Assembly: GCA_036504095.1 (NCBI GenBank)
Contig: DASXVS010000002.1
Location: 118,184-182,183 of the forward strand
DNA: 64,000 nucleotides
Direction of reading: 5' to 3'
Origin: Armatimonadota bacterium
Lineage (GTDB): Bacteria > Armatimonadota > DTGP01 > JAKQQT01
Every line of letters begins with the position of its first letter. The stretch's first letter is position 1. Of this stretch, positions 10,960-55,039 are shown in pieces. The translations under genes were made by a program, and so were the position numbers. The notes below the pieces were generated by a model that worked only from the letters and a program-made list of their open reading frames with translations, made no database searches and was not told the origin of the DNA.

Positions 10960-11062
10960 GCGGAAATGATGAAATCTGAACGATGAACGATGAACGCCGA
11001 GCTTCAAAGCGGAGGGCCGGGGGAACCGGCGGCGATCCGGCGCCTGATAAGAATCAGAGGCT

Positions 11063-16708: not shown

Positions 16709-18145
16709 ATGGCTGTCACCGATCATTCAATCCTGCCGAAAACGCCCGCCGGGGAGATGCTCGCCCTCTGGCTGGACGCCGTGAACTCCGGCGACTTCGA
16801 GACGATCCGTCGTTTCATCAGCGAAAGCCATACCGCCGCTGCGCTGGCGACTCGCAACGCCAGGCAGCGGGCGGCGGCACGCGTGCGGACGTGGACCAAC
16901 ACGCGCGGCCTGACGGCGCGGCGGATCGTCGCGTCGAAGCCGCACGCTCTGAACGCCCTGCTGTTCGGGAACCTGGCGGAGGATTGGTGGAACGTTCGCA
17001 TCGAAGTGGAGCCGGATCCGCCGCACCACGTCAAATCACTCTCGCTCTCGCCCGCGGCCGCGCCGGACGACCTGCGCGAAGGCGGCCCGTTGTCGCCGCC
17101 CGAGATTGCCGAACGACTCGACGCCTACACCGCGAAGCTCGCAGATGCCGACATTTTCTCCGGCGCCTATCTGCTTGCGCGAAACGGCGAGGTGCTCACG
17201 GCCGGGGCACGCGGCCTCGCCAGCCGCGCGTGGAAAGTCCCAAACACCGTGCAAACCCGGTTCAACCTCGGGTCGTGCAACAAGATGTTCACCTCGGTCG
17301 CGATCCTTCAGCAGATCGAATCCGGACGGATCGCTCTGGACGACCGGATCGGCGGCATTCTGCCCGACTACCCCAACGAAGACGTGGCCGCGAACGTGAC
17401 GATCCGCCATCTGCTCACGCACACCTCGGGCCTGGGCTCGTTCTTCAACCAGCAGTTCGCGGGCGCATCGCGCGCGCGATTTCGCAAGGTCGCCGATTAT
17501 ACGCCCCTCTATGAGCGCGAGCCTCTCGAGTTCCGCCCCGGCGCGCGGTTCAGCTACAGCAACTCCGGCATGATGCTTCTGGGTGTGATCCTGGAGAAAG
17601 TGACCGGCGGTGACTACTTCGAGTACATTCGCGAGCGCATCTACGGGCCGGCCGGCATGACCCGCAGCGATTCCTACGACCTCGATGCGGACGAGGCGGA
17701 CATCGCGGTCGGCTACACCAGCACGGGCGCGGACGGTGGCCACCAATCCGGACCGCGCCGCAGCAATGTCTTCACACACATCGCCAAGGGCAGCCCCGCC
17801 GGTGGAGGTTTCTCAACGGTCGAGGACATGCTGCGTTTCGACCAGGCGCTCCGGGGCAACGTCCTGCTTAAGCCGGAGACCACCGCGCTGATGCTCACGC
17901 CGCAGGCATCAACGGACTTCGATCCGTCAGTGAAGATCGGATACGGGGTCTTTCTGGAAGAGTCGGCCGGCAAGCGCATCGCGGGCCACAGCGGCGTGTT
18001 CGCGGGCGTGAACTCGCAGTTGGACATGCACCTGGACACCGGGTTCACCGCTGTCATCCTGAGCAACTACGATCCGCCCGCCGCCAAGCGCGTGGCCCAC
18101 AAGGTGAGGGAGTGGGTGGCGGGGGGAGTGATGAATGATGAGTGA
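16709..18145 (+). CDS. Serine hydrolase, beta-lactamase/transpeptidase superfamily, with an extra N-terminal domain
   Basis: S-x-x-K motif (SCNK), YSN motif (YSNSG), HSG near the C-terminus; no signal peptide seen. Confidence 0.75.
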   Translation: MAVTDHSILPKTPAGEMLALWLDAVNSGDFETIRRFISESHTAAALATRNARQRAAARVRTWTNTRGLTARRIVASKPHALNALLFGNLAEDWWNVRIEVEPDPPHHVKSLSLSPAAAPDDLREGGPLSPPEIAERLDAYTAKLADADIFSGAYLLARNGEVLTAGARGLASRAWKVPNTVQTRFNLGSCNKMFTSVAILQQIESGRIALDDRIGGILPDYPNEDVAANVTIRHLLTHTSGLGSFFNQQFAGASRARFRKVADYTPLYEREPLEFRPGARFSYSNSGMMLLGVILEKVTGGDYFEYIRERIYGPAGMTRSDSYDLDADEADIAVGYTSTGADGGHQSGPRRSNVFTHIAKGSPAGGGFSTVEDMLRFDQALRGNVLLKPETTALMLTPQASTDFDPSVKIGYGVFLEESAGKRIAGHSGVFAGVNSQLDMHLDTGFTAVILSNYDPPAAKRVAHKVREWVAGGVMNDE

Positions 18146-18185
18146 TGAATGATGAGCGATGGACGCCCGGATTCAGGGGTTCAGT
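18128..18185. repeat. Word-repeat element copy (GATGAATGATGAG tandem words followed by CCCGGATTCAGGGG)
   Basis: GTGATGAATGATGAG x2 then CGATGGACGCCCGGATTCAGGGG; overlaps the last codons of the serine hydrolase (..VMNDE stop); related copies at 48697, 51245, 54800 and inverted copies at 19165, 51411. Confidence 0.6.
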
Positions 18186-18214
18186 AACCCGGCTGGGAGA
18201 GAAGGGGAGCATTT

Positions 18215-19138: not shown

Positions 19139-19164
19139 GGGTGAAGCGTTGGTTGCCGCATCCG

Positions 19165-19200
19165 GCTTTCATCGCTCATCGACCATCGTTCATCGTCTTC
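19165..19200. repeat. Inverted copy of the GATGAA word repeat
   Basis: CTTTCATCGCTCATCGACCATCGTTCATCG is the reverse complement of GATGAACGATGG / GATGAGCGATGAA words; lies between convergent stops. Confidence 0.55.
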
Positions 19201-19201
19201 G

Positions 19202-19633: not shown

Positions 19634-19726
19634 CTTCACTCCCTCCTCATCCGAGGCATTCATGCCCCGGCATTATGGCCTTCGGCCACAAAAGCCCTGA
19701 AGGGCCTCCAAACCCCGAATCCCTGA

Positions 19727-21040: not shown

Positions 21041-21120
21041 TTGGCCCTCATAGAGAATTGAGGGTTGAGAATTGAGATCTGAGGGTCCGGAGTCCGGTCT
21101 CATTTCTCCATTCTCATATC

Positions 21121-29181: not shown

Positions 29182-29288
29182 CGCATAGAGGGCGAGATAA
29201 GGGGAAGGCGCAACGACGCGCTTTCCCCTCCCACTTTGGTGCCCGCCACCGCACAAATCCACGTAGCTCTGACGCCTGCTCCCGTCCC

Positions 29289-32051: not shown

Positions 32052-32786
32052 TCACGGGAGGCCCGGCGCCGCCACGATGTTCGCCCGCACTTCGTTCCAG
32101 GGGCGGGCGGCCGCGTGACCGTCGCAGTAGACCGATACCGTGAGGCCGTCCCACTCCATGTAGGCGGGACGTCCCTGCGGCGGCGAATGCCACGGCAGCA
32201 CGTCCGTGATCAGCACCACGCGCGTCGGCCGCGCAACTACCGACGTCGGACGGGCGGCCAGGGCAGAGTTCTCGGGCTTGGGATAGGGGTTCTCGTCCAC
32301 CACCCGCGCGTACATATCGCGATAGAAATAACTGGCGCCGCCGTCTTTCCAGAACGGGCGGGCGGGGCCGGTCATCCAGTAATCGCTGAACTTGAGATTC
32401 AGGCCGGTGTCCGAGGGGCAGCGCCATATCTCGCGGGCCGCGCCGTACGGAGAGACGGCCTCGATAATGCCGGGCGTGCCTTCGATGAACGGTCCGAATG
32501 ACGCGTACTGCGGCGTGTTCCATTCGTTCCACGCGGCGGGGAAGGTGTCATTCCAGTCGTCCGCGTACGCGCGGATAGCGACGCCTATCTGTTGCAGGTT
32601 TGAGAGGCAGACGGCACGATCTGCTTTCGTACGTGAACGCGATAGAACAGGCAGCGCGATGCCCGCCAGAATGGCGATGATCCCGCTCACCACCAGCATC
32701 TCCAGCAGTGTGAAGCCGGCCCGGGCAGTAGGCAGGAGGCAGGAGACAAAAGAGGGTGTCCCGCGCACCGAACCCCGATTCCTCAT
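32052..32786 (-). CDS. Prepilin-type N-terminal cleavage/methylation-domain protein with DUF1559-like C-terminal region
   Basis: GFTLLEMLVVSGIIAILAGIALPV prepilin signal; CLSNLQQIGVAIRAYADD and a C-terminal YCDGH motif typical of the H-X9-DG family. Confidence 0.75.
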   Translation of the reverse strand: MRNRGSVRGTPSFVSCLLPTARAGFTLLEMLVVSGIIAILAGIALPVLSRSRTKADRAVCLSNLQQIGVAIRAYADDWNDTFPAAWNEWNTPQYASFGPFIEGTPGIIEAVSPYGAAREIWRCPSDTGLNLKFSDYWMTGPARPFWKDGGASYFYRDMYARVVDENPYPKPENSALAARPTSVVARPTRVVLITDVLPWHSPPQGRPAYMEWDGLTVSVYCDGHAAARPWNEVRANIVAAPGLP

Positions 32787-32794
32787 ATACAATC

Positions 32795-32860
32795 TGCAGT
32801 ACCTCCGCGCTACCTCCACGTTCCTCTGCGTCCTCCGCGTCCTCTGCGCTGAACTCCTAC
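32795..32860. repeat. CCTCCGCG / GCGTCCTC word-repeat element
   Basis: ACCTCCGCGCTACCTCCACGTTCCTCTGCGTCCTCCGCGTCCTCTGCG; reverse-complement words of the GCGGAGG family seen at 48697 and 51245. Confidence 0.5.
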
Positions 32861-33013: not shown

Positions 33014-33559
33014 ATGGGTTATTCTGTCGTACTCATTGCTCTGGCAGTGGTTTTCACCATCGTCACCTACAACCGGTTGGTCGCGCTTCGAAACCGCGTG
33101 AAGAACGCGTGGGCGCAGGTGGACGTGCAATTGAAGCGCCGCCACGACCTCATTCCGAACCTCATCGAGACGGCGAAGGGCTACATGGCCCACGAGGCCT
33201 CCGTGCTCGAAAGCGTCACCCAGGCGCGCAATCAGGCCATGGGGGCGAGCGGCGTCGCCGGCGCCGCGCAGGCTGAGAACGCTCTCACACAGAGTCTGCG
33301 CTCGCTTTTCGCCGTCGCCGAGGCCTATCCGGACCTGAAGGCCAACACCAACATGCTCGCCCTGCAGGAGGAGCTTTCCAGCACGGAAAACAAGATCGCG
33401 TTCGCCCGCCAGTTCTACAACGACTCCGTGATGGGCTACAACAACTCCATTCAGCAGTTTCCCGGCAACTATTTCGCGGGCATGTTCGGCTTTCACGAGG
33501 AAGCGCTCTTCCAACTTGAAGACCCCGCCGAACGGGAAGTGCCCCAGGTTAAGTTCTAG
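33014..33559 (+). CDS. lemA: LemA-family protein
   Basis: N-terminal TM helix then conserved LemA block YNRLVALRNRVKNAWAQVDVQLKRRHDLIPNLIETAKGY. Confidence 0.8.
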   Translation: MGYSVVLIALAVVFTIVTYNRLVALRNRVKNAWAQVDVQLKRRHDLIPNLIETAKGYMAHEASVLESVTQARNQAMGASGVAGAAQAENALTQSLRSLFAVAEAYPDLKANTNMLALQEELSSTENKIAFARQFYNDSVMGYNNSIQQFPGNYFAGMFGFHEEALFQLEDPAEREVPQVKF

Positions 33560-33575: not shown

Positions 33576-34019
33576 ATGTCTGACAACACACACGAATCCG
33601 CCGGTTTTCACCACCTGGCCATGAAGGTCTGGGATTTCGACGCCACCCTGTCCTTTTACCGCGAAGCGCTCGGTTTCATCCCGGCGTACTCGTGGGGCGC
33701 GGACGAACGCGCTGCCGGGGGAACCGATTCACGAGCGGCCTTCCTGGACGGAGGAAACGGGAACTACATGGAGATCTTCGCCGGCGGCAGTCGACCGCCG
33801 ACCGAGGAGCCTCCGGAAGGTGTCCTCCTACATATCGCGCTCCGCGCGCAGGATTGTGACGCCGCCCTCACACGCGCCCGCACCGCTGGAGCGAAGGTCA
33901 CGATGGAGACGGCGGACATACCGGTCGCCGGAACGCCGCCGACCACCGTCCGCATCGCCTTCATCAAGGGCCCGGACAACGAAATCATCGAGTTCTTCCA
34001 GAACGATTTGCTCCGTTAG
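33576..34019 (+). CDS. VOC-family (glyoxalase/bleomycin-resistance/dioxygenase fold) protein
   Basis: HHLAMKVWDFDATLSFYREALGF N-terminal beta-alpha-beta-beta-beta module. Confidence 0.65.
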   Translation: MSDNTHESAGFHHLAMKVWDFDATLSFYREALGFIPAYSWGADERAAGGTDSRAAFLDGGNGNYMEIFAGGSRPPTEEPPEGVLLHIALRAQDCDAALTRARTAGAKVTMETADIPVAGTPPTTVRIAFIKGPDNEIIEFFQNDLLR

Positions 34020-34085
34020 GGTATCGGGTGCGGGGTCCAGGGTCTAGCCACTCAACCCTACACCCTGGACCCCATACCCTAGACC
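34017..34085. repeat. Long imperfect GC-rich hairpin (GGGTAT / GGGGTCCAGGGT words and their complements)
   Basis: GGGTATCGGGTGCGGGGTCCAGGGTCTAG ... CTACACCCTGGACCCCATACCCTAGACCC, immediately after the VOC stop. Confidence 0.5.
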
Positions 34086-34091
34086 CTTGCC

Positions 34092-35006
34092 ATGTACGAT
34101 CAGATTGCCGCGAACAAACGGGACTCCGGATTGCTGCTCATCGGCGTGATGCTGCTTCTGCTGGGCATCGGCTACGTTTTCGCGCGCGCCGAGGGCCTTC
34201 CTGTTGAGTTCGGCCTCTTTGCCGCCGCTTGCGTCGGCGTGGTCGCGTGGTTGACGGCCTATTTTGGCGGAAGCTCGATGCTCCTCGCGGCGAGCAGCGC
34301 ACGGCAGATATCGCACGAGGACGCACCGCAGCTCTTCAATGTCGTTGAGGAGATGTCGATCGCGGCCGGGCTGCCGATGCCGAAGGTGTACATCATCGAT
34401 GACTCGGCGCCCAACGCGTTCGCCACGGGCCGCAGCCCGGAGACCGCCAGCCTCGCCATCACTACCGGCCTGCTGGAGAAACTCAGCCGCGATGAGCTTC
34501 AGGGCGTGATGGCGCACGAGATGTCGCACGTCCGCAACTTTGACACCCGGCTCATGATGCTCCTGGCCGTGCTCGTCGGCGGCATCGTGCTCGCGGCGGA
34601 CGCCTTCTGGCGCATCAGCTATTTCGGCGGCGGACGGCGGCGAGACAGGGACAGCGACGGCGGCGGGCAGTTGCAGCTGCTCTTCATGGTACTCGCGATC
34701 GCCCTGGCGATCCTGGCCCCCATCTTCGCCAAGATGCTCGAAATGGCGGTCTCCCGCCAGCGCGAATACCTGGCCGACGCCAGCGCCGCGCTCATCACTC
34801 GCTATCCGGCGGGGCTCGCCGCAGCCCTTGAAAAGATCAGCGCCGACCCCGAGCCGCTGGAGGCCGCCAATCGCGCTACCCAGCACCTCTATATCGTGAA
34901 TCCGCTCAAGGGCGCCACGCAGAAGGCCGCCGGCCTGTTCGATACCCACCCTCCCATTGAGGAGCGCGTAAGAAGGCTGCGCGCGATGGAAAGCCATCCG
35001 GCATAG
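34092..35006 (+). CDS. htpX: HtpX-like M48 membrane metalloprotease
   Basis: HEMSHV zinc motif, N-terminal TM helices, second metal-ligand region EYLADASAA. Confidence 0.8.
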   Translation: MYDQIAANKRDSGLLLIGVMLLLLGIGYVFARAEGLPVEFGLFAAACVGVVAWLTAYFGGSSMLLAASSARQISHEDAPQLFNVVEEMSIAAGLPMPKVYIIDDSAPNAFATGRSPETASLAITTGLLEKLSRDELQGVMAHEMSHVRNFDTRLMMLLAVLVGGIVLAADAFWRISYFGGGRRRDRDSDGGGQLQLLFMVLAIALAILAPIFAKMLEMAVSRQREYLADASAALITRYPAGLAAALEKISADPEPLEAANRATQHLYIVNPLKGATQKAAGLFDTHPPIEERVRRLRAMESHPA

Positions 35007-35098
35007 AGTTCCGGGTTTCGAGTTCCGGGTTCCGAGTTCCGGGTTCCGAGTTCCGGGTTCCGGGTTCAGGGTTCAGGGTTTCGGGTTCCGGATTCCGA
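35005..35098. repeat. Tandem heptamer/14-mer array (GAGTTCC GGGTTCC)n, about 13 heptamer units
   Basis: GAGTTCCGGGTTTCGAGTTCCGGGTTCCGAGTTCCGGGTTCC... directly after the htpX stop. Confidence 0.7.
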
Positions 35099-35128
35099 TC
35101 ACACGGTACGACCGGCGTCCCGCCGGTC

Positions 35129-35270: not shown

Positions 35271-35300
35271 GCTCGGAACCCGGAACTCGAAACTCGAAAC
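35271..35300. repeat. Inverted partial copy of the 35005 heptamer array
   Basis: CGGAACCCGGAACTCGAAACTCGAAACCC is the reverse complement of the array start (17 nt identical). Confidence 0.6.
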
Positions 35301-35306
35301 CCAAAC

Positions 35307-42841: not shown

Positions 42842-43312
42842 TCACTGCAGGACCGGATCCGTTGCGGTGGCGGGGGCCCCGTTGTTCACAACGGATCGAA
42901 TTGCGCCGCTCGCGTCGATGAAGAACGAACGCCGGCCGGTTGTCCCGAATTGAATGGGGCACGCGGTGATGGCGTAGTTGCTGGCGTCGCCGCCGCCCGC
43001 GAAAGCGTATCCGGACTTCTGCCCTGACGCGAGAATCGGGTCCAGTTCCGGTGGCACGAGCGCCCCCAGGTCCTGGATATGGGAGGGATAGGCGTAGTTC
43101 CCGCCCACGTTCCGCAGCTGATAGGTCTCCATCGCCTTCGAGATGACGCGCATCGAACCGATCGCGCTACTCTCGTTGGCGGCCATCCGGGACTCCAGCA
43201 TGTTCGGTATGGCAAGCCCTGCCAGGATAAGGATGACCGTGATCACGATCAACAGCTCCACGAGTGTGAAGCCTCTCGGCCGGCGGCGGTACGCGTTTGC
43301 TATCAAAGACAT
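42842..43312 (-). CDS. Type IV pilin-like protein (156 aa), paralog of the pilin at 45898..46368
   Basis: RGFTLVELLIVITVILILAGLAIPN class III signal; AGGAG ribosome-binding site 7 nt before the ATG; shares the AANESSAI motif with the paralog. Confidence 0.75.
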   Translation of the reverse strand: MSLIANAYRRRPRGFTLVELLIVITVILILAGLAIPNMLESRMAANESSAIGSMRVISKAMETYQLRNVGGNYAYPSHIQDLGALVPPELDPILASGQKSGYAFAGGGDASNYAITACPIQFGTTGRRSFFIDASGAIRSVVNNGAPATATDPVLQ

Positions 43313-45897: not shown

Positions 45898-46368
45898 TTA
45901 CTGGATCGGGGTGCCTGCGCCCACTGCAACGGCAGCGGAGCCGGCGCGGATAACGCCCGTCTGGTCCACGGAGAAGAAGCGGTCGCCGGAAGAACCAACG
46001 GTCGTCGGTGCGGCGGTGAAGCCATAGGTGTTGGCGAAGGCGTCCGTCGAGACTGGCGCGCTGAACGTGTAACCGCTCTTGATACCGGTGGCCAGCACCG
46101 GGTCGATGAGGTTGGCGGCATCGCCATCGGCGACGAACAGGGCGACCGTGTTAGCGCCGGTCAGGGAACTGGCATAAAGGTGGCTGGCGCTGCGGGCGCG
46201 GAATGTCTCCTGCGCAGAAACCAGGGTGCGCAGCGAGGAAATAGCGCTGGACTCGTTCGCGGCCTTGCGGCTGGAGAGCAGGTTCGGGATCGCGATGGCC
46301 GCCAAAATGGCGATGACCGCGATGACGATCAAGAGTTCGATCAGGGTGAAGCCCTTGTTGGCTTTCAT
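45898..46368 (-). CDS. Type IV pilin-like protein (156 aa)
   Basis: KGFTLIELLIVIAVIAILAAIAIPN class III signal; AAGGAGAA ribosome-binding site upstream; start by codon arithmetic. Confidence 0.75.
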   Translation of the reverse strand: MKANKGFTLIELLIVIAVIAILAAIAIPNLLSSRKAANESSAISSLRTLVSAQETFRARSASHLYASSLTGANTVALFVADGDAANLIDPVLATGIKSGYTFSAPVSTDAFANTYGFTAAPTTVGSSGDRFFSVDQTGVIRAGSAAVAVGAGTPIQ

Positions 46369-46835: not shown

Positions 46836-47300
46836 TCAGCCCCGCGTGCTCTCCATCAGGCGTTTCACGTTGTTGGTGCTGAACGACTTGTTGCCCTTGC
46901 GCTGGATGATCTCGTGGATGACCCCCGTCTGGGCAACGGGCTTGGTGAAGATCTGGAGCAGGTTGGCGTCCTCCAGGATATCGGCGGAGAGAAACTCCAC
47001 GCCCTTTGCCTTGAGGTCTTTTACTGCGGCGTGGATGTCCGGCACGGCGTAGGCCACGTGGTGCAGCGCGTTGCCGTGCAGGCGCACCCACTCCTTCACT
47101 ACCCCGCCGTCGCCGACGCCTTCACTGATGAAAATCTGGATCGAGCCGGCGTTCAACGCGGCGCAATTGGCGTGCGTTCCGTCCTCAAAATCGATCTCAA
47201 ACCGGTCCGCCACCTCCAGCCCGATCACGCCGGTGTAGAAAGCCAGCGCCTTCTCCAGGTCGTCCACGCGGAAGGCGATGTGGTCGATTGGTCCTATCAT
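46836..47300 (-). CDS. VOC-family protein
   Basis: IDHIAFRVDDLEKALAFYTGVIGLEV and a second module HHVAYAVPDIHAAVKDLKAKGVEF. Confidence 0.65.
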   Translation of the reverse strand: MIGPIDHIAFRVDDLEKALAFYTGVIGLEVADRFEIDFEDGTHANCAALNAGSIQIFISEGVGDGGVVKEWVRLHGNALHHVAYAVPDIHAAVKDLKAKGVEFLSADILEDANLLQIFTKPVAQTGVIHEIIQRKGNKSFSTNNVKRLMESTRG

Positions 47301-47530
47301 CTGCGTCCTCCTGTTTACAGAATGACCCGCGTGACAGCTTGAAAGTTCGGGGGAAGGAGTCACAAGGGAGGTGGCGGCATCCGGGATGCACCGCGGGGGA
47401 TTTCCTGCCGCGAAGCCGCTGAGGAAACCGAGGGACCGGGAGGCTTCTCACCCCTCCGGTTGAATCCCCTCATGACTCTGTGGACCTCTGTGCTCCTTCG
47501 TGCCCTCGGTGGTGAACCCGGGCCCACCGC

Positions 47531-48007
47531 TCATCGTTCTTCGTTCAGCGTTTGCGTGGGCAGGGGGTTCGTCATCCCCTCGGGAACGAGCTCATTGGCG
47601 AACTCGATGACCTTGTCGTCGTTCAATTCGGCGTCATCGTACCCGTTCCACTTCTCCAGGCTCCAGATCTCGGCCACGTTGCCGTTGCCGATAACCACCA
47701 CGTCGCCCTGGATTTCCGCCTTGTCCCGAAGGTATTTCGGAATCAGCACCCGTCCCGCCTCATCCGGCGTCACTTCGGTGGCGGCGCCCATATAGAACCG
47801 CCGCAAAGCGAGGGCCTTCTTATCGGTGTCGGCGATCCGGCCCAGTTTGTCGAGGATCGTCTGCCACTGAGCCGGCGGGTAGAGCGCGATGCAGCCGCTG
47901 AACCCGCGCGTCAGGACGTAGGGCGCCTCGAACGCCTCCCGTAATTTCACGGGAAGAACGAGGCGACCCTTGCTGTCCAGGTTGTGGGTTGTGGAGCCGG
48001 AATACAT
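47531..48007 (-). CDS. mraZ: Transcriptional regulator MraZ
   Basis: LDSKGRLVLPVKLR and a second half VVVIGNGNVAEIWSLEKW; duplicated MraZ/SpoVT-AbrB-like halves; 158 aa. Confidence 0.8.
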   Translation of the reverse strand: MYSGSTTHNLDSKGRLVLPVKLREAFEAPYVLTRGFSGCIALYPPAQWQTILDKLGRIADTDKKALALRRFYMGAATEVTPDEAGRVLIPKYLRDKAEIQGDVVVIGNGNVAEIWSLEKWNGYDDAELNDDKVIEFANELVPEGMTNPLPTQTLNEER

Positions 48008-48039
48008 GGTTCTGGGGGGCCGCTGAGCGGCTCGGGCCG

Positions 48040-48534
48040 TCAGGCCATCGCGACCGCGGGCGCCCTTCGCGCGGTGGCCTCGCTGGCCATATCACGCGCG
48101 CAGACCGTGCAATACACCTTTTCCGACGGGCGGATCTCACCGTCCTCGCCCGGAAGCATCATCGGGGCCGAGAAGGGGTCGACGGCGCCGCACACGCCGC
48201 AGGTTTCAAACGGGATGGACTCACTGCCGGTCGCCCGGACCACATCCTCGATAACCGCCAGAACGATATCCTGCAACGGCAGCTCGACCCGTCCGAACGC
48301 GAAATCGCGCTTCAGGGTGATCTCCAGCCCGTCGAGCAGCGGCAGGGCGCTCACCGGCAGACGGACAAGATACGTCACGACGGGACCGTCGCTGTACAGG
48401 CGTATCTGCCCGACCTGCGCCAGCCCGGCGGCGTATCCCGCCAGATCGTCGCGTTCCACCGTGTTTCTCGGCTCGGCGAAAAAGACCGCGTCCACCGTCT
48501 TTTCGGCCCCACATTGCCTGCTGGCGCGCTTCAT
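48040..48534 (-). CDS. Hypothetical protein with C-terminal zinc-ribbon-like Cys pairs (possibly YceD/DUF177-like)
   Basis: ETCGVCG ... YCTVCARD; 32 nt upstream of mraZ on the same strand. Confidence 0.35.
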   Translation of the reverse strand: MKRASRQCGAEKTVDAVFFAEPRNTVERDDLAGYAAGLAQVGQIRLYSDGPVVTYLVRLPVSALPLLDGLEITLKRDFAFGRVELPLQDIVLAVIEDVVRATGSESIPFETCGVCGAVDPFSAPMMLPGEDGEIRPSEKVYCTVCARDMASEATARRAPAVAMA

Positions 48535-48566
48535 TGCTTGTCTGCCCCCTCTGGAATGGTCGTAAA

Positions 48567-48609
48567 TACCACAAAATGGCTCGGTCTGACACTGCCTACC
48601 ACAAAATGG
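48567..48609 (-). promoter_or_regulatory. Direct repeat TACCACAAAATGG x2 (30-bp periodicity) in the promoter region of the 48040..48534-mraZ operon
   Basis: Two identical 13-mers at 48567..48579 and 48597..48609; the transcribed strand reads CCATTTTGTGGTA. Confidence 0.4.
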
Positions 48610-48696
48610 ATTATGACATGTCCCGTCATGGCGCAGAGGGATCAGGAATGGATTTTCACGCCGGCCGGGTGTTGATAAGTGGCATCAGGCCGGTAC

Positions 48697-48757
48697 GATG
48701 AAGCCGGATTCACCGCGGAGGACGCAGGGGAACGCGGAGGTCGCGCGGAGGAATCAG
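48697..48757. repeat. Dispersed word-repeat element copy (GATGAAGCCGGATTCACCGCGGAGG...)
   Basis: About 88% identical over 43 nt to the copy at 51245..51297. Confidence 0.65.
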
Positions 48758-48863
48758 TAGGACGGGCGTCTCGCCCGCTACCGGGAAAACTTAGCAGGGC
48801 CAATCAAAAGGCGAAACGCGCCCACCGGAAAGGCGCAATCCGGCTCAGCACTTCGGTCAGTAC

Positions 48864-50330
48864 TTACTTCTTCCGCCCATACCCGACTGCCCAGGCGCCT
48901 GCCAACGCGCACAGCGCCACGAACCAGTCGCCGAACCGCACATACGGGGTACGGTCGTTACGCAAGCCCACTGTGCCGCTGAGGGTGCCCGCCTGTCCGA
49001 GCGGCAGCGATTCCTGGACCTCGCCGGAAGGCGAAATGAGCGCGGAGATGCCGGTATGGCCGCACCGGACGACCCAGCGGCGCGTCTCGATGGCCCGTAG
49101 TCGCGCCGCCTCCAGGTGCTGGACCGCCATGCCGGTGCGCCCGAACCAGGCGTCGTTGGTGATGACCACCAGGAGGTTGGCCCCTTCGCGAACGAACGCT
49201 CGGGCGGCTTTGGGAGACGCCGATTCGAAGCAGATCGGCACGCCTAGACGCAAATCCCCCGCCGAGAGCACTTCGTACTTCATCCCCGGCTCTTCATCGC
49301 GTTCCACAACCCCGAAATCGCCCAGGAACGGCAGCACGTGGCGGAGCGGAACGAACTCCCCGAACGGCACCAATTGTCGCTTTCGATAGATCCCCGCGAC
49401 GCTTCGATCCGGCCCGAACAGAACGGCGGCGTTGAACGGCGCGCCGCTTGCCCCGTACCCGATGGCGCCGGTCAGCAGCGGCGCATCGAGGCGGGCCGGA
49501 ACGTCGGTCGCTCGCTGAAGGAGCGCCGGGTCCGCCAGGATGGCCCCCGGCGCAGAAGATTCCGACCACACGATGAGGCCGGCCCCTCCGCCGGCTTTCA
49601 GCGTCGCCGCCCGCATCGCCTCGAACGCGCGGTAGCCCCCGGCGCTGCTCCACGCATCGTTGGAGTCGCCCTGAACACACAGCACCGTCCCAAATTGATG
49701 ATCGCTGTCCGCCGCGCCTGCTCGCGCCCACTCGCTCATCCCATAGCCGATGCCCGTTGCCAACAGCACAACGATGAGACCAGCTATACCGGCGCGTCGC
49801 CCGGCGCGATCCCCTCGGACCAAAAGGAACAACGCGGTTCCCGCGAACGCGACCATCGCGCTCACCATATAGCAACCGCCGATCGAGGCCCATTGCGCCA
49901 CCGGTGTCGCGACGGCCGGCGTTGACAGACCGCCGAACGGGAAGCCATAGGTGCCACTGCCCCGCGCCCATTCTGCAACCGCCCAGATCGCGGGCACGCC
50001 GGCCAGAATCGCCACCCTGGAGCGCCGCAGCACCGCGGCCAGCGCCACCGCGATAGGGATGAACCAGAGCGCCTCGATCGCCGTGAACAACGCCCACGGC
50101 AGGACCGCCATCCAGATCACGCCCTCGCCGAATGAGGTCGTGAACAGGCCGACCCCGCCCATGAATGCCAGACCCATCAGATAGCCGCGGCCGACCGCCT
50201 GTTTCGGCGTCGCGCCGCTCAACGACCACAGCAGTGGAATCAGGGCGAACCAGACGAGGGTATCCCACCCGAACGGCGGAAAGCATGCCGCCAGGAGCAA
50301 ACCGGACAAAAGAGCGGCCAGGGCGCGCAT
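48864..50330 (-). CDS. lnt: Apolipoprotein N-acyltransferase
   Basis: N-terminal multi-TM region followed by a CN-hydrolase domain (LIVWSESS, ICFESA); start by codon arithmetic at MRALAALLSGLLLAAC. Confidence 0.8.
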   Translation of the reverse strand: MRALAALLSGLLLAACFPPFGWDTLVWFALIPLLWSLSGATPKQAVGRGYLMGLAFMGGVGLFTTSFGEGVIWMAVLPWALFTAIEALWFIPIAVALAAVLRRSRVAILAGVPAIWAVAEWARGSGTYGFPFGGLSTPAVATPVAQWASIGGCYMVSAMVAFAGTALFLLVRGDRAGRRAGIAGLIVVLLATGIGYGMSEWARAGAADSDHQFGTVLCVQGDSNDAWSSAGGYRAFEAMRAATLKAGGGAGLIVWSESSAPGAILADPALLQRATDVPARLDAPLLTGAIGYGASGAPFNAAVLFGPDRSVAGIYRKRQLVPFGEFVPLRHVLPFLGDFGVVERDEEPGMKYEVLSAGDLRLGVPICFESASPKAARAFVREGANLLVVITNDAWFGRTGMAVQHLEAARLRAIETRRWVVRCGHTGISALISPSGEVQESLPLGQAGTLSGTVGLRNDRTPYVRFGDWFVALCALAGAWAVGYGRKK

Positions 50331-50379
50331 TTGCCCAGGCCGATTGAGGCATCCTGAGCGCAGCGCAGCGCCCCACCGA

Positions 50380-50470
50380 CTGAAGGCGGCGGTTGTTGCC
50401 CCCCAAAGTCGGCTGAAGCCGACTGCGAACCAGCCGGCTTCAGCCGTCTTCGTACGGCAGACGTTGGCTT
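50380..50470. repeat. GGCTGAAGCCG / CGGCTTCAGCC alternating-orientation word repeats
   Basis: GTCGGCTGAAGCCGAC ... CCGGCTTCAGCCG ... GGCTTCAGCC in the lnt upstream region. Confidence 0.5.
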
Positions 50471-50525
50471 CAGCCAATGGGGCAACGGAATGGTTCAGCG
50501 GGCCTCGGGCGGCTATCATGGGGTC

Positions 50526-51224
50526 ATGAAAATCGTGTCGCTCGTTCACATCGGTATGGTATCATTGTCGGCCGCACTTTTGGCAGGCTGCGCCCGCACT
50601 CCACCCGGAGCCACCACGGGCGCACAGACCCTCGTGACGTTCGAGGTGCAGGTGGCCGGGCAGATCGTACCCGGCGACCCAAATGCCTACTACTACATCG
50701 TTCTGGATACCGACAACAACCCGGCCACCGGGCCGATTCCGGTCGTGGCCCGCCCATGGGGAAACGGGTACGCCGCGGGCTCCTATACCCACTACGTGCT
50801 CTACCATAACGGCGTGTTCGGCGTCTACGAGTCCATCGACCCCAACCATACCACCTCGACCTACCTGGGGCGGCCCCTGCAGGGCGGCATCACAACCACC
50901 AACCGGCCCAACGACACCCTGTTCGTCCAGGTGGACCGCGCTCAGATCGCCGATATTCACCCGGACGTCCGCGCCATCGACGTCAATGTCATCAGCACCG
51001 ACCGCGTGCCGCTCGACCCCCAGGAACTCACCGTTAAGGTAGTGGACGGCCTCGGAGCCTCAGGAAATGACTACGTGACCATCCCGTTCGGCTTCACCAC
51101 CGTCTACACAAACGGCGTGGACCCCGACCCCGCCCATCCCGAGACTCCCCGCGACGCCGACGGACTCGCGAACAACCCTAACCTCGACCTCATTAACTGG
51201 CGCATCACCGTCCAGACACAGTGA
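50526..51224 (+). CDS. Hypothetical lipoprotein
   Basis: Signal peptide with lipobox LLAGCA; no recognisable domain. Confidence 0.5.
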   Translation: MKIVSLVHIGMVSLSAALLAGCARTPPGATTGAQTLVTFEVQVAGQIVPGDPNAYYYIVLDTDNNPATGPIPVVARPWGNGYAAGSYTHYVLYHNGVFGVYESIDPNHTTSTYLGRPLQGGITTTNRPNDTLFVQVDRAQIADIHPDVRAIDVNVISTDRVPLDPQELTVKVVDGLGASGNDYVTIPFGFTTVYTNGVDPDPAHPETPRDADGLANNPNLDLINWRITVQTQ

Positions 51225-51244
51225 CTGGGAAACGATGAATGATG

Positions 51245-51297
51245 TGCGACGAACGATGAAACCGGATTCAGCGCGGAGGATGCAGAGGTAACGCGGA
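51245..51297. repeat. Dispersed word-repeat element copy (direct orientation)
   Basis: CGATGAATGATGTGCGACGAACGATGAAACCGGATTCAGCGCGGAGGATGCAGAGGTAACGCGGAG. Confidence 0.65.
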
Positions 51298-51360
51298 GCA
51301 ATCCCTGACCCAGCGCTGAGCCGTGGGGCCAGCCCCACGTCCGCGGGCGGAAATGGCACT

Positions 51361-51477
51361 AATAGATTCCTCCGTGCACCTCCGTGTGCTCAGTGTCCTC
51401 CGTGGTGAAATTCTCCGCGTTACCTCTGCGTCCCGCTGCGTCCTCCGCGGTGAAGTCGGGAACCTCCGCGTTGAATC
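51361..51477. repeat. Inverted copies of the CGGAGG word-repeat element
   Basis: CTCCGCGTTACCTCTGCGTCC...CCTCCGCGTTGAATCCG is the reverse complement of the 51245 copy; together they bracket the convergent junction with a CGTGGGGC..GCCCCACG mini-hairpin between. Confidence 0.65.
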
Positions 51478-51483
51478 CGAACC

Positions 51484-53703
51484 CTAGAATCCTGGCGGCA
51501 AACTCGACGCCGTGCTGCTCTGCAAATCCCCGCCGCCGATGTTCAAGTTCTCGCCGAACATGCCGGTGGTGAACGGGTCGGCCATCGGGAACGCCTTGAT
51601 CCGTATCAGCACGCGGATCCCCGTCTCGTTGCGCCAGCCTTTGTCGTTGATCAGCGCGACGGACGCCTCGGTGCAACCCATATCCTTCGCGACGAGGAAG
51701 TGGCGGTATCGCTGTCCGCTGTCCGTGCCGGCGAGAGCCCGCACGCGCCAGTCGCGGCCGACGGGCGTGTCGAGGCTGCCCAGCAGCCGTCCGAACCGTC
51801 CTGTCGCCGGTATGTAGCGGCCTTCGCCGTCGAAGTGGAGCCCGCCCAGCCGCAGCCGAAGGCCGCTGTTCACGTAGCGCACTTTTGACGTCTCGCCCGG
51901 CGCCTTGCCGTTCACGTTGATCGCCGCGTTGGTCACCCATCGTATCCCGGGAGTGGGCTGCACGATCGCCATCGCCAGGAGGTCGCGCCAGGGCGTGAGG
52001 TGGTTGCGGAAGTCATACGCCGTGCCGGCGCGGAGCTCCAGGGCGCGCATATCGGCCAGTTTCACTGTGCCGCTGAGGCTCTCGTACGCGAACGGACGGT
52101 CGAACTGGAACGGCGTGTAGCCCTTCGGCTTCGAGACGCTGTAGCTCAGCGTGAAGTCCGATTTGCGACCGAGAGGCTGCGTGACGCCCAGGTTGCCGGT
52201 CAGCGTGTAGAGCGCTGCGTCACTTGTGTAGATCGCCTGCCGAAATCCGCCGCCCACGTTCAACGTCAGCGATCCGGCCTTCCACCGCCGGTTCGGCGCG
52301 GTTGCCTCGAACAACTGCCGCCCCCCGCGATGCCCGTTCGCCTCGAACGAGCCGTCCGCCAGCGTGAGCGCAACCGGCGCCGATTTGGACGCGGTCAGCC
52401 CGAGCCTATACGCGTCCGATTTGAGCGTGAGTTCCGGCAGCCGCTGGACCGGCAGATACAGCCCGCCCGTTTCGCCGCCTCCGTGGACCGCTATATGGTT
52501 GGCCGCCAGTTCCACATCCACCGCGTTGAAGCCCTGCGCCACGCTGATCTTGTGGTCTACTTCGCTCGTGGCCGGGATGCCCGCCGATGACTGCCGCGTG
52601 CTGTCGACGCCGAATTGGAGGGTCCCCTTGGGGTCGAATTTGTACGCCTGCGCGAATCCTGCCGTCACGCCCTGGTATTTGCCGCCGCCCGACTTGCTGC
52701 CGTTGTAGCGGAGCGACAAACGGGTGTCCGATGCGCCCACCGCGCGTGCCATCGAGATCCCGGCGCTGCGCGACGTGCTGCCGGGCACATACAGGTAGGA
52801 GTTCTTCCGAAGTTCGCCTTCCAGCTGCGTGTCGAAGCCAAGGATCTTGCGGTTGTCGCGCAGATTGGCGCTCAGGTTGCGCCCCGCCTGCCCCGTCACC
52901 GAATACAACGACACCTCCCCCTTGCCGTTGGGCGCATAGTCGTGCGTAACTCCGAGGCCGAGCCCCTGCTTCTGCATTACGTCCACATGCACCGCGCCCG
53001 TCTGCCCGCCCCGGGCATAGTTCAGCAGCGTCTTAAGGAAGAAGCCTTCCTCCGTGCTCTGCCCCACCACCGGCACGACCGGCGCCTGCCCGCCCTGCTG
53101 CTTGATAGGAAAAACCAGCGTCGGCACGGTGGCCAGCCTCCGTCCGAACAGCAGCGTGGTCGCGTGCCGTGCGATGACCTTCCGGTCCGGCAGGATGGTC
53201 ACCTCTCGGGCGACGACCTCGTACTGCGGCCGCACCGGATCGCACGAGGTGATGTGCGCGTTGTAGAGCGTGATCTCGCGCCTGGATCCCTTAATGCTCT
53301 CCGCCATCACGTGGAATGGTGAAAGCGCGCCCACGGGGGTCACATCCGTGGTCGACTTGCTCATCGACCACTCCCGCGTCTTGATGTTGAACTCCAGGAA
53401 GCTGTCCGCGCCGCCGCTGACGGTCTCTTTGCCGGTGTCCAGCGCCACGTTTCCGCGCAGGATGGCCGTCGACGTCGTCTCGTCGAAATCGCCCGCGTCC
53501 CCGGTCAAAACGTACTGCTTGTGCGTGATGCGAACGTGGCCCGCCGCGACCCAGTGCTTCGCGGACTCCTCGTAGTGGGTGATATCGGCCGAAATTGTGG
53601 CGTTCGGCGCGGGCGCGAGCGGCAGGCCGGGCGCGGTCTGCCCCAGTGCGCGCGGGGCGCAGAGGAGGGCAATCGCAGCGACGGCGGTTATTCCTCGCGC
53701 CAT
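51484..53703 (-). CDS. lptD: LPS-assembly protein LptD-like (OstA N-terminal domain plus outer-membrane beta-barrel)
   Basis: Signal peptide MARGITAVAAIALLCAPRALGQ; OstA-like N-terminal segment; long beta-rich C-terminal region; start by codon arithmetic. Confidence 0.65.
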   Translation of the reverse strand: MARGITAVAAIALLCAPRALGQTAPGLPLAPAPNATISADITHYEESAKHWVAAGHVRITHKQYVLTGDAGDFDETTSTAILRGNVALDTGKETVSGGADSFLEFNIKTREWSMSKSTTDVTPVGALSPFHVMAESIKGSRREITLYNAHITSCDPVRPQYEVVAREVTILPDRKVIARHATTLLFGRRLATVPTLVFPIKQQGGQAPVVPVVGQSTEEGFFLKTLLNYARGGQTGAVHVDVMQKQGLGLGVTHDYAPNGKGEVSLYSVTGQAGRNLSANLRDNRKILGFDTQLEGELRKNSYLYVPGSTSRSAGISMARAVGASDTRLSLRYNGSKSGGGKYQGVTAGFAQAYKFDPKGTLQFGVDSTRQSSAGIPATSEVDHKISVAQGFNAVDVELAANHIAVHGGGETGGLYLPVQRLPELTLKSDAYRLGLTASKSAPVALTLADGSFEANGHRGGRQLFEATAPNRRWKAGSLTLNVGGGFRQAIYTSDAALYTLTGNLGVTQPLGRKSDFTLSYSVSKPKGYTPFQFDRPFAYESLSGTVKLADMRALELRAGTAYDFRNHLTPWRDLLAMAIVQPTPGIRWVTNAAINVNGKAPGETSKVRYVNSGLRLRLGGLHFDGEGRYIPATGRFGRLLGSLDTPVGRDWRVRALAGTDSGQRYRHFLVAKDMGCTEASVALINDKGWRNETGIRVLIRIKAFPMADPFTTGMFGENLNIGGGDLQSSTASSLPPGF

Positions 53704-54782
53704 ATCAGCCACGCTCCCACGCCGGTGAAGACCGCGTTCGGCAGCCACGCCGCCAGCACAGGCGGCAGCACCGAACCGCCCATTTCCTTGAAGAACAGGT
53801 ATCCCTGCACGTAGAGGAAGAAGAGCACCAGCGCGATCAGGATGCCCGTGAAGCCGCCACCGCGGCCGAAATGCACCGCCAGCGGCAGACTGATGATCGT
53901 CAGCACCACGCACGCGAACGGCAGCGCGAATTTCAGGTAGTAATCCACCTTCCATTCCCGCGTGTTCGGGTTGCCGGTCCTCACCCCCTCCGCGATCGCC
54001 CGCGACAACTGCATCGCGTTCATCTCGTCCGTCGTCTGCGCCATCGTCCACAGCGTGCCCACCGTCCGGTCAACGTCGAACGTGAACTTGGGGAACGCGA
54101 CCTCGTTGGTGGTGAACCCGCGCGCATCCATCTCGCGCCGCACGCCCCGGTACAGAGTCCATTTGGTGCCGCTGGCGGTGGCCGTCTCGGCGGTGTACAG
54201 GACCGGATACGTGCCGGACCGCATCTCGTAGACCATCACGCGCGTCAGCAGAAACGCCACCTCGTTCGGGTTGGCGGAATCCCGCGTCTTCTGCATGTCG
54301 CCGATGTAGAACTTGAACTGCCCCGTGCCGAAGAAGACGTCGCTGCGGATGGAGATCGGTCGCACCTTGAAGAACAGGCGGTACTCCGCCATCGACGCGC
54401 GGTGGTTCATCATCGGGGCGATGGTCTCATTGATGTAGAAGCTCGCCACGCTGATCAGCGCGGCGACGACCATCATGGGGACGAGGATGCGCTTCAACGG
54501 CATCCCGCTCAGGCGCATGACGGTGATCTCGTTCTCGCGCGCCATCCGGTTCACGCCCAGCGACACGCCGAACAGCACCGCCACCGGCAGCGCGTATACG
54601 ATGAACTGCGGCATCCGGTAGGCGATGACCTTCGCTACTTGCGAAAGCGCCGCGCGGTCGTTCATCACCAGCCGGAACAGGTTCATCAGCACCGCGCTGA
54701 CCTGCATCAGCAGGAAGCCGAACACCCCAACGAGGAACGGCGCCAGCAGCTCGCGCGCCAGATATCGGTCGGCCGTCTTCAC
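53688..54782 (-). CDS. LPS export ABC permease LptF/LptG family (YjgP/YjgQ)
   Basis: DRYLARELLAPFLVGVFGFLLM N-terminus and permease layout; proposed GTG start at codon 28 because the upstream 27 codons are encoded by a GATGAA word repeat. Confidence 0.7.
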   Translation of the reverse strand: MKTADRYLARELLAPFLVGVFGFLLMQVSAVLMNLFRLVMNDRAALSQVAKVIAYRMPQFIVYALPVAVLFGVSLGVNRMARENEITVMRLSGMPLKRILVPMMVVAALISVASFYINETIAPMMNHRASMAEYRLFFKVRPISIRSDVFFGTGQFKFYIGDMQKTRDSANPNEVAFLLTRVMVYEMRSGTYPVLYTAETATASGTKWTLYRGVRREMDARGFTTNEVAFPKFTFDVDRTVGTLWTMAQTTDEMNAMQLSRAIAEGVRTGNPNTREWKVDYYLKFALPFACVVLTIISLPLAVHFGRGGGFTGILIALVLFFLYVQGYLFFKEMGGSVLPPVLAAWLPNAVFTGVGAWLIWREE

Positions 54783-54783
54783 G

Positions 54784-54850
54784 CTATGAGTATAGGGAAC
54801 GAAGCGATGAATGATGAACGATGGGCGATGAATAGCGGAGGCGGATTGAG
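54784..54850. repeat. Diverged copy of the GATGAA/CGGAGG word-repeat element
   Basis: GAACGAAGCGATGAATGATGAACGATGGGCGATGAATAGCGGAGGCGGATTGAGC. Confidence 0.55.
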
Positions 54851-55039
54851 CTTGGAGGGACACAGAGAAAGCTGGTGATGGGCGTCCGGACAGGAGTGGA
54901 AGACCGAAGCGCTACCTTCCGTCCGCTCTCTTCCAAGGAATCACCGTTCCTGACGGGACCGGTCCTTCACGGTGAAAGTATGGTCCAGCCCTGCCGGACG
55001 CCCGGGATTGGCGTCCAGCAGGACACACCACTTGGACCG

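Follow-up and report, generated by a model that had tools for sequence, protein, structure and literature searches.

What are the GC-rich word repeats that are scattered through the intergenic DNA of an Armatimonadota bacterium? In 64,000 nt of its contig DASXVS010000002.1 (positions 118,184 to 182,183, analysed at full length and called the window below), an initial annotation had noticed short words such as GATGAA and CGGAGG at several places, and had considered a REP-like terminator or insulator, a mobile MITE and a protein-binding array as explanations. The analysis described here points, with about an even chance of being right, to non-coding and non-autonomous selfish repeats of the REPIN/BOX kind, i.e., modular hairpin repeats with slippage-prone arms, which incidentally provide hairpins at transcript ends. 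This reading is suggested by the dispersal of copies that share a joint and a word order, by their intergenic location, by their mirrored arms and by the lack of any dependence on the direction of transcription. It is also suggested by decay through transitions, slippage of the arrays, lineage-specific abundance and a distribution across phyla.

The repeats of the window are copies of one modular element

At least nine copies of one modular repeat were found in the window, including a degenerate one (copy 5) that had been overlooked before (Table 1). All previously listed copies were recovered, displaced by a few nucleotides at most, and the window copies align to one consensus, (GATGAAN)n-CCGGATTCA-NCGCGGAGG-ACGCAGAGG-(T)AACGCGGAGG. 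Three modules can be distinguished. In module A, GATGAAN heptamers are lined up in an array whose two strands are rich in A and in T, respectively; module B is the non-repetitive joint CCGGATTCA; and in module C, words of the NCGCGGAGG type form an array with a period of 8–9 nt. The irregular word order GGAGGACGCAGAGG(T)AACGCGGAGG is common to copies at separate loci. The identity of about 88% that had been reported for the copies at 48697 and 51245 was reproduced (48697 versus 51255, 39 of 44 nt, 88.6%), and other pairs of copies are 86–95% identical over 21–37 nt, or 85–92% complementary over 38–47 nt.

The copies are much more frequent than expected by chance. Allowing up to three mismatches, the 16-nt core was matched seven times in the window versus 1.34 expected matches, and seven matches were reached in none of 100 shuffles. 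A simple array detector found four C arrays (0.71 expected) and four A arrays (0.10 expected), all of them intergenic or overlapping the last codons of a gene (P ~4e-8); only 11.9% of the window is intergenic, and about 88% is coding. Tandem Repeats Finder reported module A with a period of 7 at 10977, 18126, 19169 and 54805. The underlying gene map was made with a self-trained codon model and agrees with the JGI gene calls for 40490–61224. A hidden Markov model (HMM) that had been trained on metagenome elements alone (see below) recovered six window segments with E values from 4e-7 to 7e-3, all intergenic, and nothing significant in coding DNA. This is a dispersed, related and intergenic family, as had been proposed. 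The genes adjoining the repeats are ordinary and mutually unrelated; they encode an ABC permease, GH43, beta-lactamase-like, ACT-domain, DUF1559 pilin-like, LemA, MraZ, Lnt, LptD-like and LptF/G proteins.

Alternatively, the copies might be no family by descent at all, but independent products of a lineage-specific slippage of heptamers and nonamers in intergenic DNA. The window indeed contains 21 arrays with a period of 7 or 14, composed of many unrelated units, versus 2.5 expected (13 of the 21 are intergenic), while relatives at 57–70% identity contain 0–2 such arrays per 8–22 kb. In addition, arrays change their length in situ (see below), and heptamer simple sequence repeats (SSRs) are already known to be over-represented in bacterial intergenic DNA (PMC4692102, PMC4679880). 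However, separate loci have in common not only an irregular word order but also the non-repetitive joint CCGGATTCA, both core and architecture are found again in other phyla, and slippage alone leaves inverted pairs with mirrored word order unexplained. Because the shared joint and word order contradict it, an independent origin is regarded as largely refuted and thus as very unlikely. Nevertheless, the lineage of the window seems to be prone to generating or tolerating heptamer arrays, and this may be the reason for the strong expansion of the arms in the window.

One pair of copies forms a very stable hairpin

Long imperfect hairpins, often between convergent genes, had been attributed to the copies in general. 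This could not be upheld. In the window only the pair 51228–51304 / 51366–51483, which is located between the convergent genes for a 244-aa protein and an LptD-like protein, forms a long hairpin. For the locus 51228–51483 the minimum free energies of the RNAs of the two strands are -121 and -120 kcal/mol (z -5.4), and none of 200 shuffled sequences was as stable. In contrast, the solo copies at 10960, 18120, 19139, 32780, 48690, 54783 and 47370 have z values from -1.95 to +0.98 and fold like shuffled sequences. The arms are direct arrays of words, not imperfect palindromes of 20–40 nt. Convergent spacers hold two of the window copies, and the others are found in tandem or divergent spacers.

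The tail of the paired locus is T-rich, without being a T-run, on one strand only, i.e., the lptD strand, where it is the complement of the A array. A scan for consensus terminators called none at the elements. A comparison with Rfam yielded no match in the window at the gathering score and none with an E value of up to 1 in the region 47300–51600, and the paired copies from metagenomes (see below) yielded only sub-threshold matches to generic miRNA-precursor hairpins.

The family is shared by at least three phyla

Metagenome sequences were searched with a pattern consisting of GGATTCANCGCGGAGG followed by CGCGGAG within 25 nt. At least 120 loci match, which represent at least 113 non-redundant elements with GC contents of 48–72%. 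The core of the family is GGATTCA[A/C]CGCGGAGG, to which the word arrays are joined; among the matches listed, a typical member consists of the 16-nt core and three to four words spaced 8 or 9 nt. Inverted partners were detected by local alignment against a control. Among the matches listed, 39 of 108 elements have an inverted partner within 300 nt, these paired elements are 74 to about 230 nt long, and the remainder (about 64%) are solo arms. As the HMM built from the 113 metagenome elements alone recovers the window copies, the latter belong to this wider family.

Loci were assigned to taxa by means of flanking proteins with counterparts in named metagenome-assembled genomes (MAGs), which are either identical or fall into the same cluster at 90% identity or more. 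Acidobacteriota are represented by Bryobacteraceae (L168, L218), Ca. Solibacter (L134), Pyrinomonadaceae (L217) and Ca. Angelobacter (L197), and Planctomycetota by Phycisphaerales (L228/L138) and Tepidisphaeraceae (L245). At one further locus (L163) the flanking protein clusters with a protein of an Alphaproteobacteria MAG. The window itself is from Armatimonadota, so that the family spans at least three phyla. A genome collection was scanned with the pattern GATGAA..GGATTCA..GCGGAGG, which was both too permissive and too demanding: nearly all of the 95 matches are coding or due to chance, and those of interest are the sole full A+B+C composite, in a Phycisphaeraceae MAG (L071), and core variants at L046, L069, L070 and L097.

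Other searches were negative. In viral contigs the 16-nt core had 28 matches and a stricter pattern had one, all of them chance matches in coding DNA (translated as GFSAEE...). The consensus element had no blastn match in plasmids, and when the translated element (41 aa) was compared by phmmer with 1.84 billion representatives, only two unrelated Ig-like repeat proteins were retrieved. An additional 10 kb of the source contig contains no further copies. In a literature search for the core strings and for general repeat families in these phyla no description was found. The initial annotation had not recognized a named REP, BIME or MITE family; in line with this, neither Rfam nor the literature on the core strings gave a match. 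The copies align with one another, and the motif is not confined to the window but extends to the metagenome loci and phyla named above. Taken together, these non-coding intergenic repeats, common to soil Armatimonadota, Acidobacteriota and Planctomycetota, are apparently an undescribed family.

Copies are gained, lost and lengthened at orthologous sites

Relatives of the window were found through the LptD-like and Lnt proteins; a homologue search with a 979-aa protein revealed no close relative. The convergent junction between the lptD-like gene and the 244-aa gene could be compared between genomes. In the window the spacer has 259 nt, and the two arms contain about seven and about three words. 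A relative at 82–87% identity (contigs L249 and L252) also has an A+B+C hairpin at this junction (z -8.1) with about four plus three words. Its loop cannot be aligned with that of the window, and it has a T insertion in both arms (GGATTTCAA / TTGAAATCC), which is compensatory. A second relative, at 82% (L253), has a spacer of only 73 nt, in which each arm is one word long (TTCAACGCGG ... CCGCGTTGAA) and TTCATC occurs once; here the hairpin is a compact GC hairpin followed by a T-rich tail. No element is present at the junction in relatives at 69–70% and 57% identity.

The copy downstream of lnt is absent from L252, L253, L250 and L254, and no A or C array was detected in non-coding DNA across about 70 kb of more distant relatives. 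The TTCATC array upstream of lptF/G is kept in the 69% relative, where it also lies beside a conserved TTCCCTATACT. Of two nearly identical contigs, L148 and L171, one has an array block that the other lacks. Copies are thus gained and lost on the genus scale, and they can persist at a site and lengthen in situ.

Mirrored arms and gene context

Among the 39 paired elements, the complementarity of the arms beyond the fixed core is 86% within an element versus 43% between elements, and therefore each hairpin mirrors its own word order. The mismatches between the arms are mostly transitions and they are symmetric (43 G:T, 40 A:C). Relative to the incoming transcript 33 mismatches are wobble-compatible and 29 are A:C, so that there is no excess of G:U.

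The gene contexts of the metagenome elements were called with a codon-model caller. Of 26 paired elements, 17 are in tandem, 4 in convergent and 5 in divergent spacers, and 21 have a gene 3′-end on at least one side. Where solo arms lie in tandem spacers, 16 have the sense and 9 the antisense orientation, which is not a significant bias. Neither for paired nor for solo elements does the placement clearly depart from a random placement in spacers. The close approach to gene ends, however, is non-random: in most 3′-facing cases the edge of the element is 0–21 nt from the stop codon, while the distances to start codons are broad.

These results bear on the view that the copies are RNA elements selected by the host, i.e., factor-independent and often bidirectional terminators, 3′-stabilizers or insulators, which arise and lengthen in situ at gene ends and for which module A would be the A/U-rich flank. 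The extreme stability of the paired locus on both strands between convergent genes, with the T-rich complement of the A array following the hairpin on the lptD strand, is what such an element should look like. The same can be said of the junction, where the orthologous site bears a hairpin in each of three lineages, of the short distances to stop codons and of the A-rich upstream and T-rich downstream flanks of paired elements, the large majority of which face a 3′-end. However, the solo arms, which make up about 64% of the family and seven to eight of the nine window copies, do not have a significant fold. The fraction of paired elements in divergent, i.e., promoter, spacers (5 of 26) is roughly that expected at random, G:U does not exceed A:C in the transcribed strand, and the terminator scan called none of the elements, while lnt has a canonical terminator upstream of copy 6. 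Moreover, a terminator does not need a 16-nt core that is conserved across phyla. As an explanation of the family, host-selected RNA elements are possible, if on balance not probable.

A terminator role of the paired copies is plausible nevertheless, because the hairpin is strong, the flanks are A/T-rich and a hairpin has persisted at the junction. Such a role is insufficient as the cause of the family, because most arms are solo, copies occur in divergent spacers and the core is conserved. Any effect on termination, insulation or 3′-end protection may plausibly be a by-product or a secondary domestication. The earlier assignment to REP-like or MITE-like elements thus stands with respect to the kind of element, while the proposed role as terminator or insulator is unproven, as only one locus among about nine window copies forms a hairpin and the orientation is unbiased.

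The orientation of the arrays is also relevant for another alternative, namely that they are binding sites for a conserved factor. This could be a stand-by site or sponge of Shine-Dalgarno-like GGAGG, a sponge for a CsrA-type protein or a series of periodic 8–9-bp protein sites, with the TGA-containing heptamers acting as stops in three frames. The words carry GGAGG at a regular period of 8–9 nt, and a universal partner such as the 3′-end of 16S rRNA would fit a core that is shared by phyla. The core GGAUUCACC presumably resembles this 3′-end, GGAUCACC(UCCUUA), which may be a coincidence; the GGAGG of the words is taken to be the Shine-Dalgarno core, and the opposite strand reads CCUCC and GGUGAAUCC. 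Of the six A arrays, four directly follow a stop codon in the sense orientation, with TGA in all three frames on that strand only. However, two A arrays, like copy 6, run antisense to both adjacent genes, the solo C arms lack a significant orientation bias (16:9), and the nearest GGAGG of copy 4 is about 15 nt from the candidate start, too far for a Shine-Dalgarno sequence. No candidate protein has been identified, and the abutment to stop codons is explained equally well by the filling of spacers. Binding-site arrays are therefore quite unlikely.

A transposase gene between inverted arms, and the origin of the copies

Among the matches listed, one solo element (L242) is the only one with an inverted core far downstream, at a distance of 1,070 nt. 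The inverted arms (5413–6503) bracket a gene for an IS200-like Y1 transposase (5756–6196, minus strand) of 146–170 aa. The protein matches PF01797 with an E value of 2.7e-25, scores 72.8 with NF033573 (cut-off 55) and also matches structures of IS608/ISDra2-type TnpA in the PDB. Homologues with at least 90% identity are encoded on two further contigs, one of which has 16,983 nt, the same size as the contig of L244.

With this locus, the proposal that the copies are selfish hairpin repeats can be worked out as follows. The basic unit would consist of two B+C arms in inverted orientation, separated by a variable spacer, and would form a long hairpin in single-stranded DNA or in RNA; solo arms would be half units or decayed units. 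The copies would be made and kept palindromic by a process at the DNA level, e.g., hairpin-dependent copying or mobilization, for which an IS200-like Y1 (HUH) transposase might be supplied in trans. The involvement of such an enzyme is deduced from the L242 locus and from the analogy with REPIN/RAYT and TIR/TIRYT (PMC3733652). The arrays would lengthen and shorten by replication slippage, and the copies would decay through CpG-type transitions. They would survive only where they are harmless, which could explain why they fill spacers right up to the stop codons. Paired copies would then necessarily place a very stable hairpin at the 3′-ends of transcripts.

Several observations weigh against this proposal. 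Upstream of the paired elements the flanks are rich in A (34%) and downstream in T (29%), versus a background of 17%, and this is the look of bidirectional terminators, although it often arises because the palindrome simply runs on into the flanks. The junction copy has remained about 80% alignable, although the neighbouring loop and the other spacers of the genomes compared have diverged beyond alignment, which suggests selection, or else homogenization towards the family consensus. With the RAYT model NF047646 the L242 protein scores only 29.8, below the NCBI cut-off of 80. The L242 gene also has unrelated inner inverted and direct repeats of about 80 nt (GCCGCGCCAGCGGCG...AATAGCCCGGTACGCAGC), and as the inner inverted repeats are its own, the locus may be a TIRtron-like unit, or an insertion sequence (IS) may have landed in the loop of a hairpin. 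The association with a transposase thus comes from n = 1 locus; the window, the additional 10 kb of its contig and the rest of the 1.8 Mb of fetched loci contain no transposase gene, although a single find in 1.8 Mb is as expected if a genome has hundreds of repeats and one transposase gene. Among the elements examined there is no pair of empty and filled sites, no target-site duplication and no conserved insertion target. Lastly, REP/RAYT systems are usually lineage-specific, and for them it is unusual that different phyla have an identical 16-nt core; a conserved host factor could be an alternative source of it.

Mobility, which had been considered for the repeats, is suggested by gain and loss between relatives and by one Y1 locus, but no empty site or target duplication was found, and the search for a RAYT or IS200-like transposase that had been recommended yielded that one locus, below the RAYT cut-off, and none in the window. 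The ends of paired copies are terminal inverted repeats (GGATTCACCGCGGAGG ... CCTCCGCGGTGAATCC). The sequences that flank them extend the palindrome (e.g., AGCAGAAAAGAG ... CTCTTTTCTGCT); they are not direct repeats, and there is no common target.

A bolder version would make the elements the non-autonomous partner of an unrecognized Y1 (HUH) system that spreads horizontally in several phyla, i.e., soil Acidobacteriota, Planctomycetota and Armatimonadota. The arms would be self-expanding, Shine-Dalgarno-like GGAGG arrays, and copies would have been domesticated repeatedly as gene-end hairpins. This is unlikely, but if it were true, it would become observable how REP-like repeats are born, lengthened in situ and moved between phyla.

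Individual copies and other repeats of the window

The copies, their modules and their gene contexts are compiled in Table 1.

Table 1. Copies of the modular repeat and other period-7 arrays in the window (A, B, C: modules; positions refer to the window).
Feature	Position	Strand	Structure	Context
Copy 1	10962..11025	+	A array (GGAAATGATGAAATCTGAACGATGAACGATGAA), then degenerate B/C (GCTTCAAAGCGGAGGG)	A array starts 3 nt past stop of ABC permease gene 10114-10959; upstream of GH43 gene 11063-12061
Copy 2	18124..18192	+	Five GATGAR heptamers, then B (CCCGGATTCA); without C array	Stop codon of beta-lactamase-like gene 16709-18145 falls within the heptamers
Copy 3	19155..19201	-	Inverted; A array, then degenerate B (GCCGGATGCGGC)	A array 1 nt past stop of ACT-domain gene 19202-19663 (-); spacer convergent with 18215-19138
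Copy 4	32800..32857	-	Solo C array of five words (GGAGTTCAGCGCAGAGGACGCGGAGGACGCAGAGGAACGTGGAGGTAGCGCGGAGG)	Divergent spacer between pilin-like gene 32052-32792 (-) and LemA gene 33014-33559 (+)
Copy 5	47451..47552	-	Degenerate; ACGATGA-type heptamers in last mraZ codons; past the stop GGGTTCACC and words CACCGAGGG, CACGAAGGAG, CACAGAGG; second core GGGGATTCAACCGGAGGGG after the words	Directly follows mraZ stop
Copy 6	48697..48755	+	One GATGAA word, B (GCCGGATTCA), four C words; solo arm	Antisense to lnt 48864-50330 (-) and 164-aa gene 48040-48534 (-)
Copy 7	51228..51304	+	A array, B (ACCGGATTCA), three C words; left arm of long hairpin	A array 4 nt past stop of 244-aa gene 50490-51224
Hairpin loop (spacer)	51305..51365	.	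Holds its own small GC hairpin (GGGGCCAGCCCC)	
Copy 8	51366..51483	-	Core GGTTCGGATTCAACGCGGAGG, about 7 C words, including a second TTCACCGCGGAGG unit and a TTCACCACGGAGG unit; right arm of hairpin	Core directly follows stop of lptD-like gene 51484-53712 (-)
Copy 9	54800..54871	+	A array and degenerate B/C (TAGCGGAGGCGGATTGAGCTTGGAGGGACACAGAG)	Antisense to both flanking genes; just upstream of lptF/G start
Other period-7 arrays	21053-21123, 21695-21726, 29271-29313, 34018-34087, 35006-35110 with 35272-35306, 60799-60823 with 60907-60960			

On the lptF/G strand, the TTCATC words of copy 9 precede the conserved TTCCCTATACT (window 54783–54832; 69% relative, L246 8840–8885 / L247 105–151), which includes a -10-like TATACT. 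A TTCATC or CTCATC word is situated 18 nt upstream of TATACT in both the window and the 69% relative, and the array may have been co-opted as promoter sequence. Downstream of lnt, a canonical terminator with a hairpin and a T-run is present at 48826–48800 (minus strand; GGTGGGCGCGTTTCGCC TTTTGATTGG), and copy 6 lies beyond it. As lnt has a canonical terminator of its own, the organism uses ordinary intrinsic terminators.

The other period-7 arrays of the window consist of unrelated units, i.e., GAGAATT, GGGCTGA, GGGTNNN, GGGTTCC/GAGTTCC (13 units) and TGAGGGC. Most of them are inverted pairs, and their arms begin -8 to +4 nt from a stop codon. Several heptamer arrays of the window make up the arms of hairpins that start at stop codons. 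A further heptamer-array hairpin at 26432–26507 (CCGGCAT/GCATTCA units and their complement) lies in frame inside the gene 25780–27834 and encodes a linker (aa 218–243) between the Aldolase_II and short-chain dehydrogenase domains. A second type of repeat is found in the divergent spacer between lnt and the 244-aa gene (50360–50480), which contains three or four GGCTTCAGCC / GGCTGAAGCC palindromes (e.g., GTCGGCTGAAGCCGAC). They are conserved in the 82–87% relative (L252 813–989), and similar words occur in the 69% relative (L246 8470–8885). Upstream of the operon of the 164-aa gene and mraZ the direct repeat TACCACAAAATGG is present twice, 31 nt apart (48567–48610); it may be an operator, e.g., MraZ boxes. 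Three paralogous segments encoding prepilin N-terminal methylation motifs (GFTLLE...; 32650–32717, 43206–43273 and 46286–46353) belong to pilin-like or DUF1559 genes. They account for the direct-repeat family D2 and are unrelated to the modular repeat.

Several other types of sequence were considered and rejected. For integron attC sites, the TTCAAC / GTTGAA variant would fit RYYYAAC / GTTRRRY, but the common variant is TTCACC, and the neighbours are housekeeping genes. CRISPR arrays were ruled out, as there are no spacers, and so were coding peptide repeats, as there is no open reading frame and the copies are intergenic. DNA uptake sequences (DUS) were ruled out by a core that is absent from coding DNA and is not species-specific, and Chi sites and DnaA boxes by their different sequences.

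Discussion

Bacterial repeats of the REP, BOX and MITE-like types are usually specific for a genus or a species, and there is debate on how they originate. The element described here is non-coding, and at least three phyla of soil bacteria that have been little studied share its architecture and an identical 16-nt core. Its arms have grown from one word to several at orthologous sites, which makes it a tractable case for the study of the origin, the palindrome upkeep and the spread of such repeats. There are also practical consequences. The family breaks short-read metagenome assemblies, as exemplified by the 82–87% relative, where L249 ends (3453) and L252 starts (1) inside the repeat with an overlap of 28 nt, and the repeats yield spurious open reading frames with translations such as FTAEDAE... 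and LRVLRG.... They could be usable as lineage markers. If the paired copies terminate transcription, they would help to define transcription units in phyla for which intrinsic terminators are poorly known.

Inverted short sequences downstream of genes are typical for intrinsic bidirectional terminators as well as for pairs of the DUS of Neisseria and the uptake signal sequences (USS) of Haemophilus. The elements resemble both in being inverted conserved pairs just past genes with A-rich and T-rich flanks. Unlike intrinsic terminators, they appear to have no proper U-tract, and most copies form no hairpin; the differences from DUS and USS are those given above for the core. Terminal inverted repeats are a feature in common with MITEs, but there is no target-site duplication, no fixed length and no conserved interior, and the spacers cannot be aligned even at an orthologous site.

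The BOX element of S. pneumoniae is modular (boxA-boxBn-boxC) with a variable number of B units, forms stable hairpins and is intergenic. The likeness is one of architecture only: both elements have A-B-C modules with variable tandem sub-units, are intergenic, non-coding and hairpin-forming, and lack a transposase of their own. In contrast, the host phyla are unrelated and the sequences probably are, too; short-word arrays make up two of the three modules here, and many copies are single arms.

Intergenic heptamer arrays have been described before, namely GGGAATC in Xanthomonas, GGGGAYT and STRR in Nostoc and TAACTGA in Beggiatoaceae (PMC4692102, PMC4679880). Like these, module A consists of tandem heptamers that are over-represented intergenically, sometimes form inverted pairs and vary in length between relatives. 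Unlike them, the unit is GATGAAN, and it is one module of a composite dispersed element that also has a joint and an array of 8–9-mers. Moreover, the TAACTGA repeats of Beggiatoaceae are located just upstream of start codons, whereas the elements described here mostly abut stop codons.

TIR repeats with TIRYT tyrosine transposases occur in Acidobacteria and other groups as moderately abundant families with dimers and solo copies (PMC3733652). Long inverted repeats around a Y1 gene and the coexistence of dimers and solo copies are found here, too. However, the motif GGGGWSAS that TIRs share (PMC3733652) is absent, the transposase gene of L242 has separate inner inverted repeats, and the association is one locus.

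The REP and REPIN elements with RAYT transposases of E. coli and Pseudomonas were surveyed in PMC3733652, which cites Bertels and Rainey (2011). The elements differ from REP in defining features: the units are not palindromic, and a GTAG or CGTC tag (PMC3733652) is missing. Instead of small palindromes the arms are direct arrays of 8–9-nt words with variable length, the consensus ends with GGATTCA[A/C]CGCGGAGG, the same 16-nt core is present in three phyla, and the one Y1 protein is below the RAYT cut-off. In other respects the elements are like REP and REPIN: they are short, extragenic, present in high copy number, mostly near gene ends and differ in abundance between lineages; they form inverted hairpin doublets as well as decayed singlets, and they may be linked to an IS200-like Y1 gene that is enclosed by inverted copies. 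Taken together, the copies behave like hairpin repeats of the REP/BOX type, and thus they make up a new family within a known kind of element.

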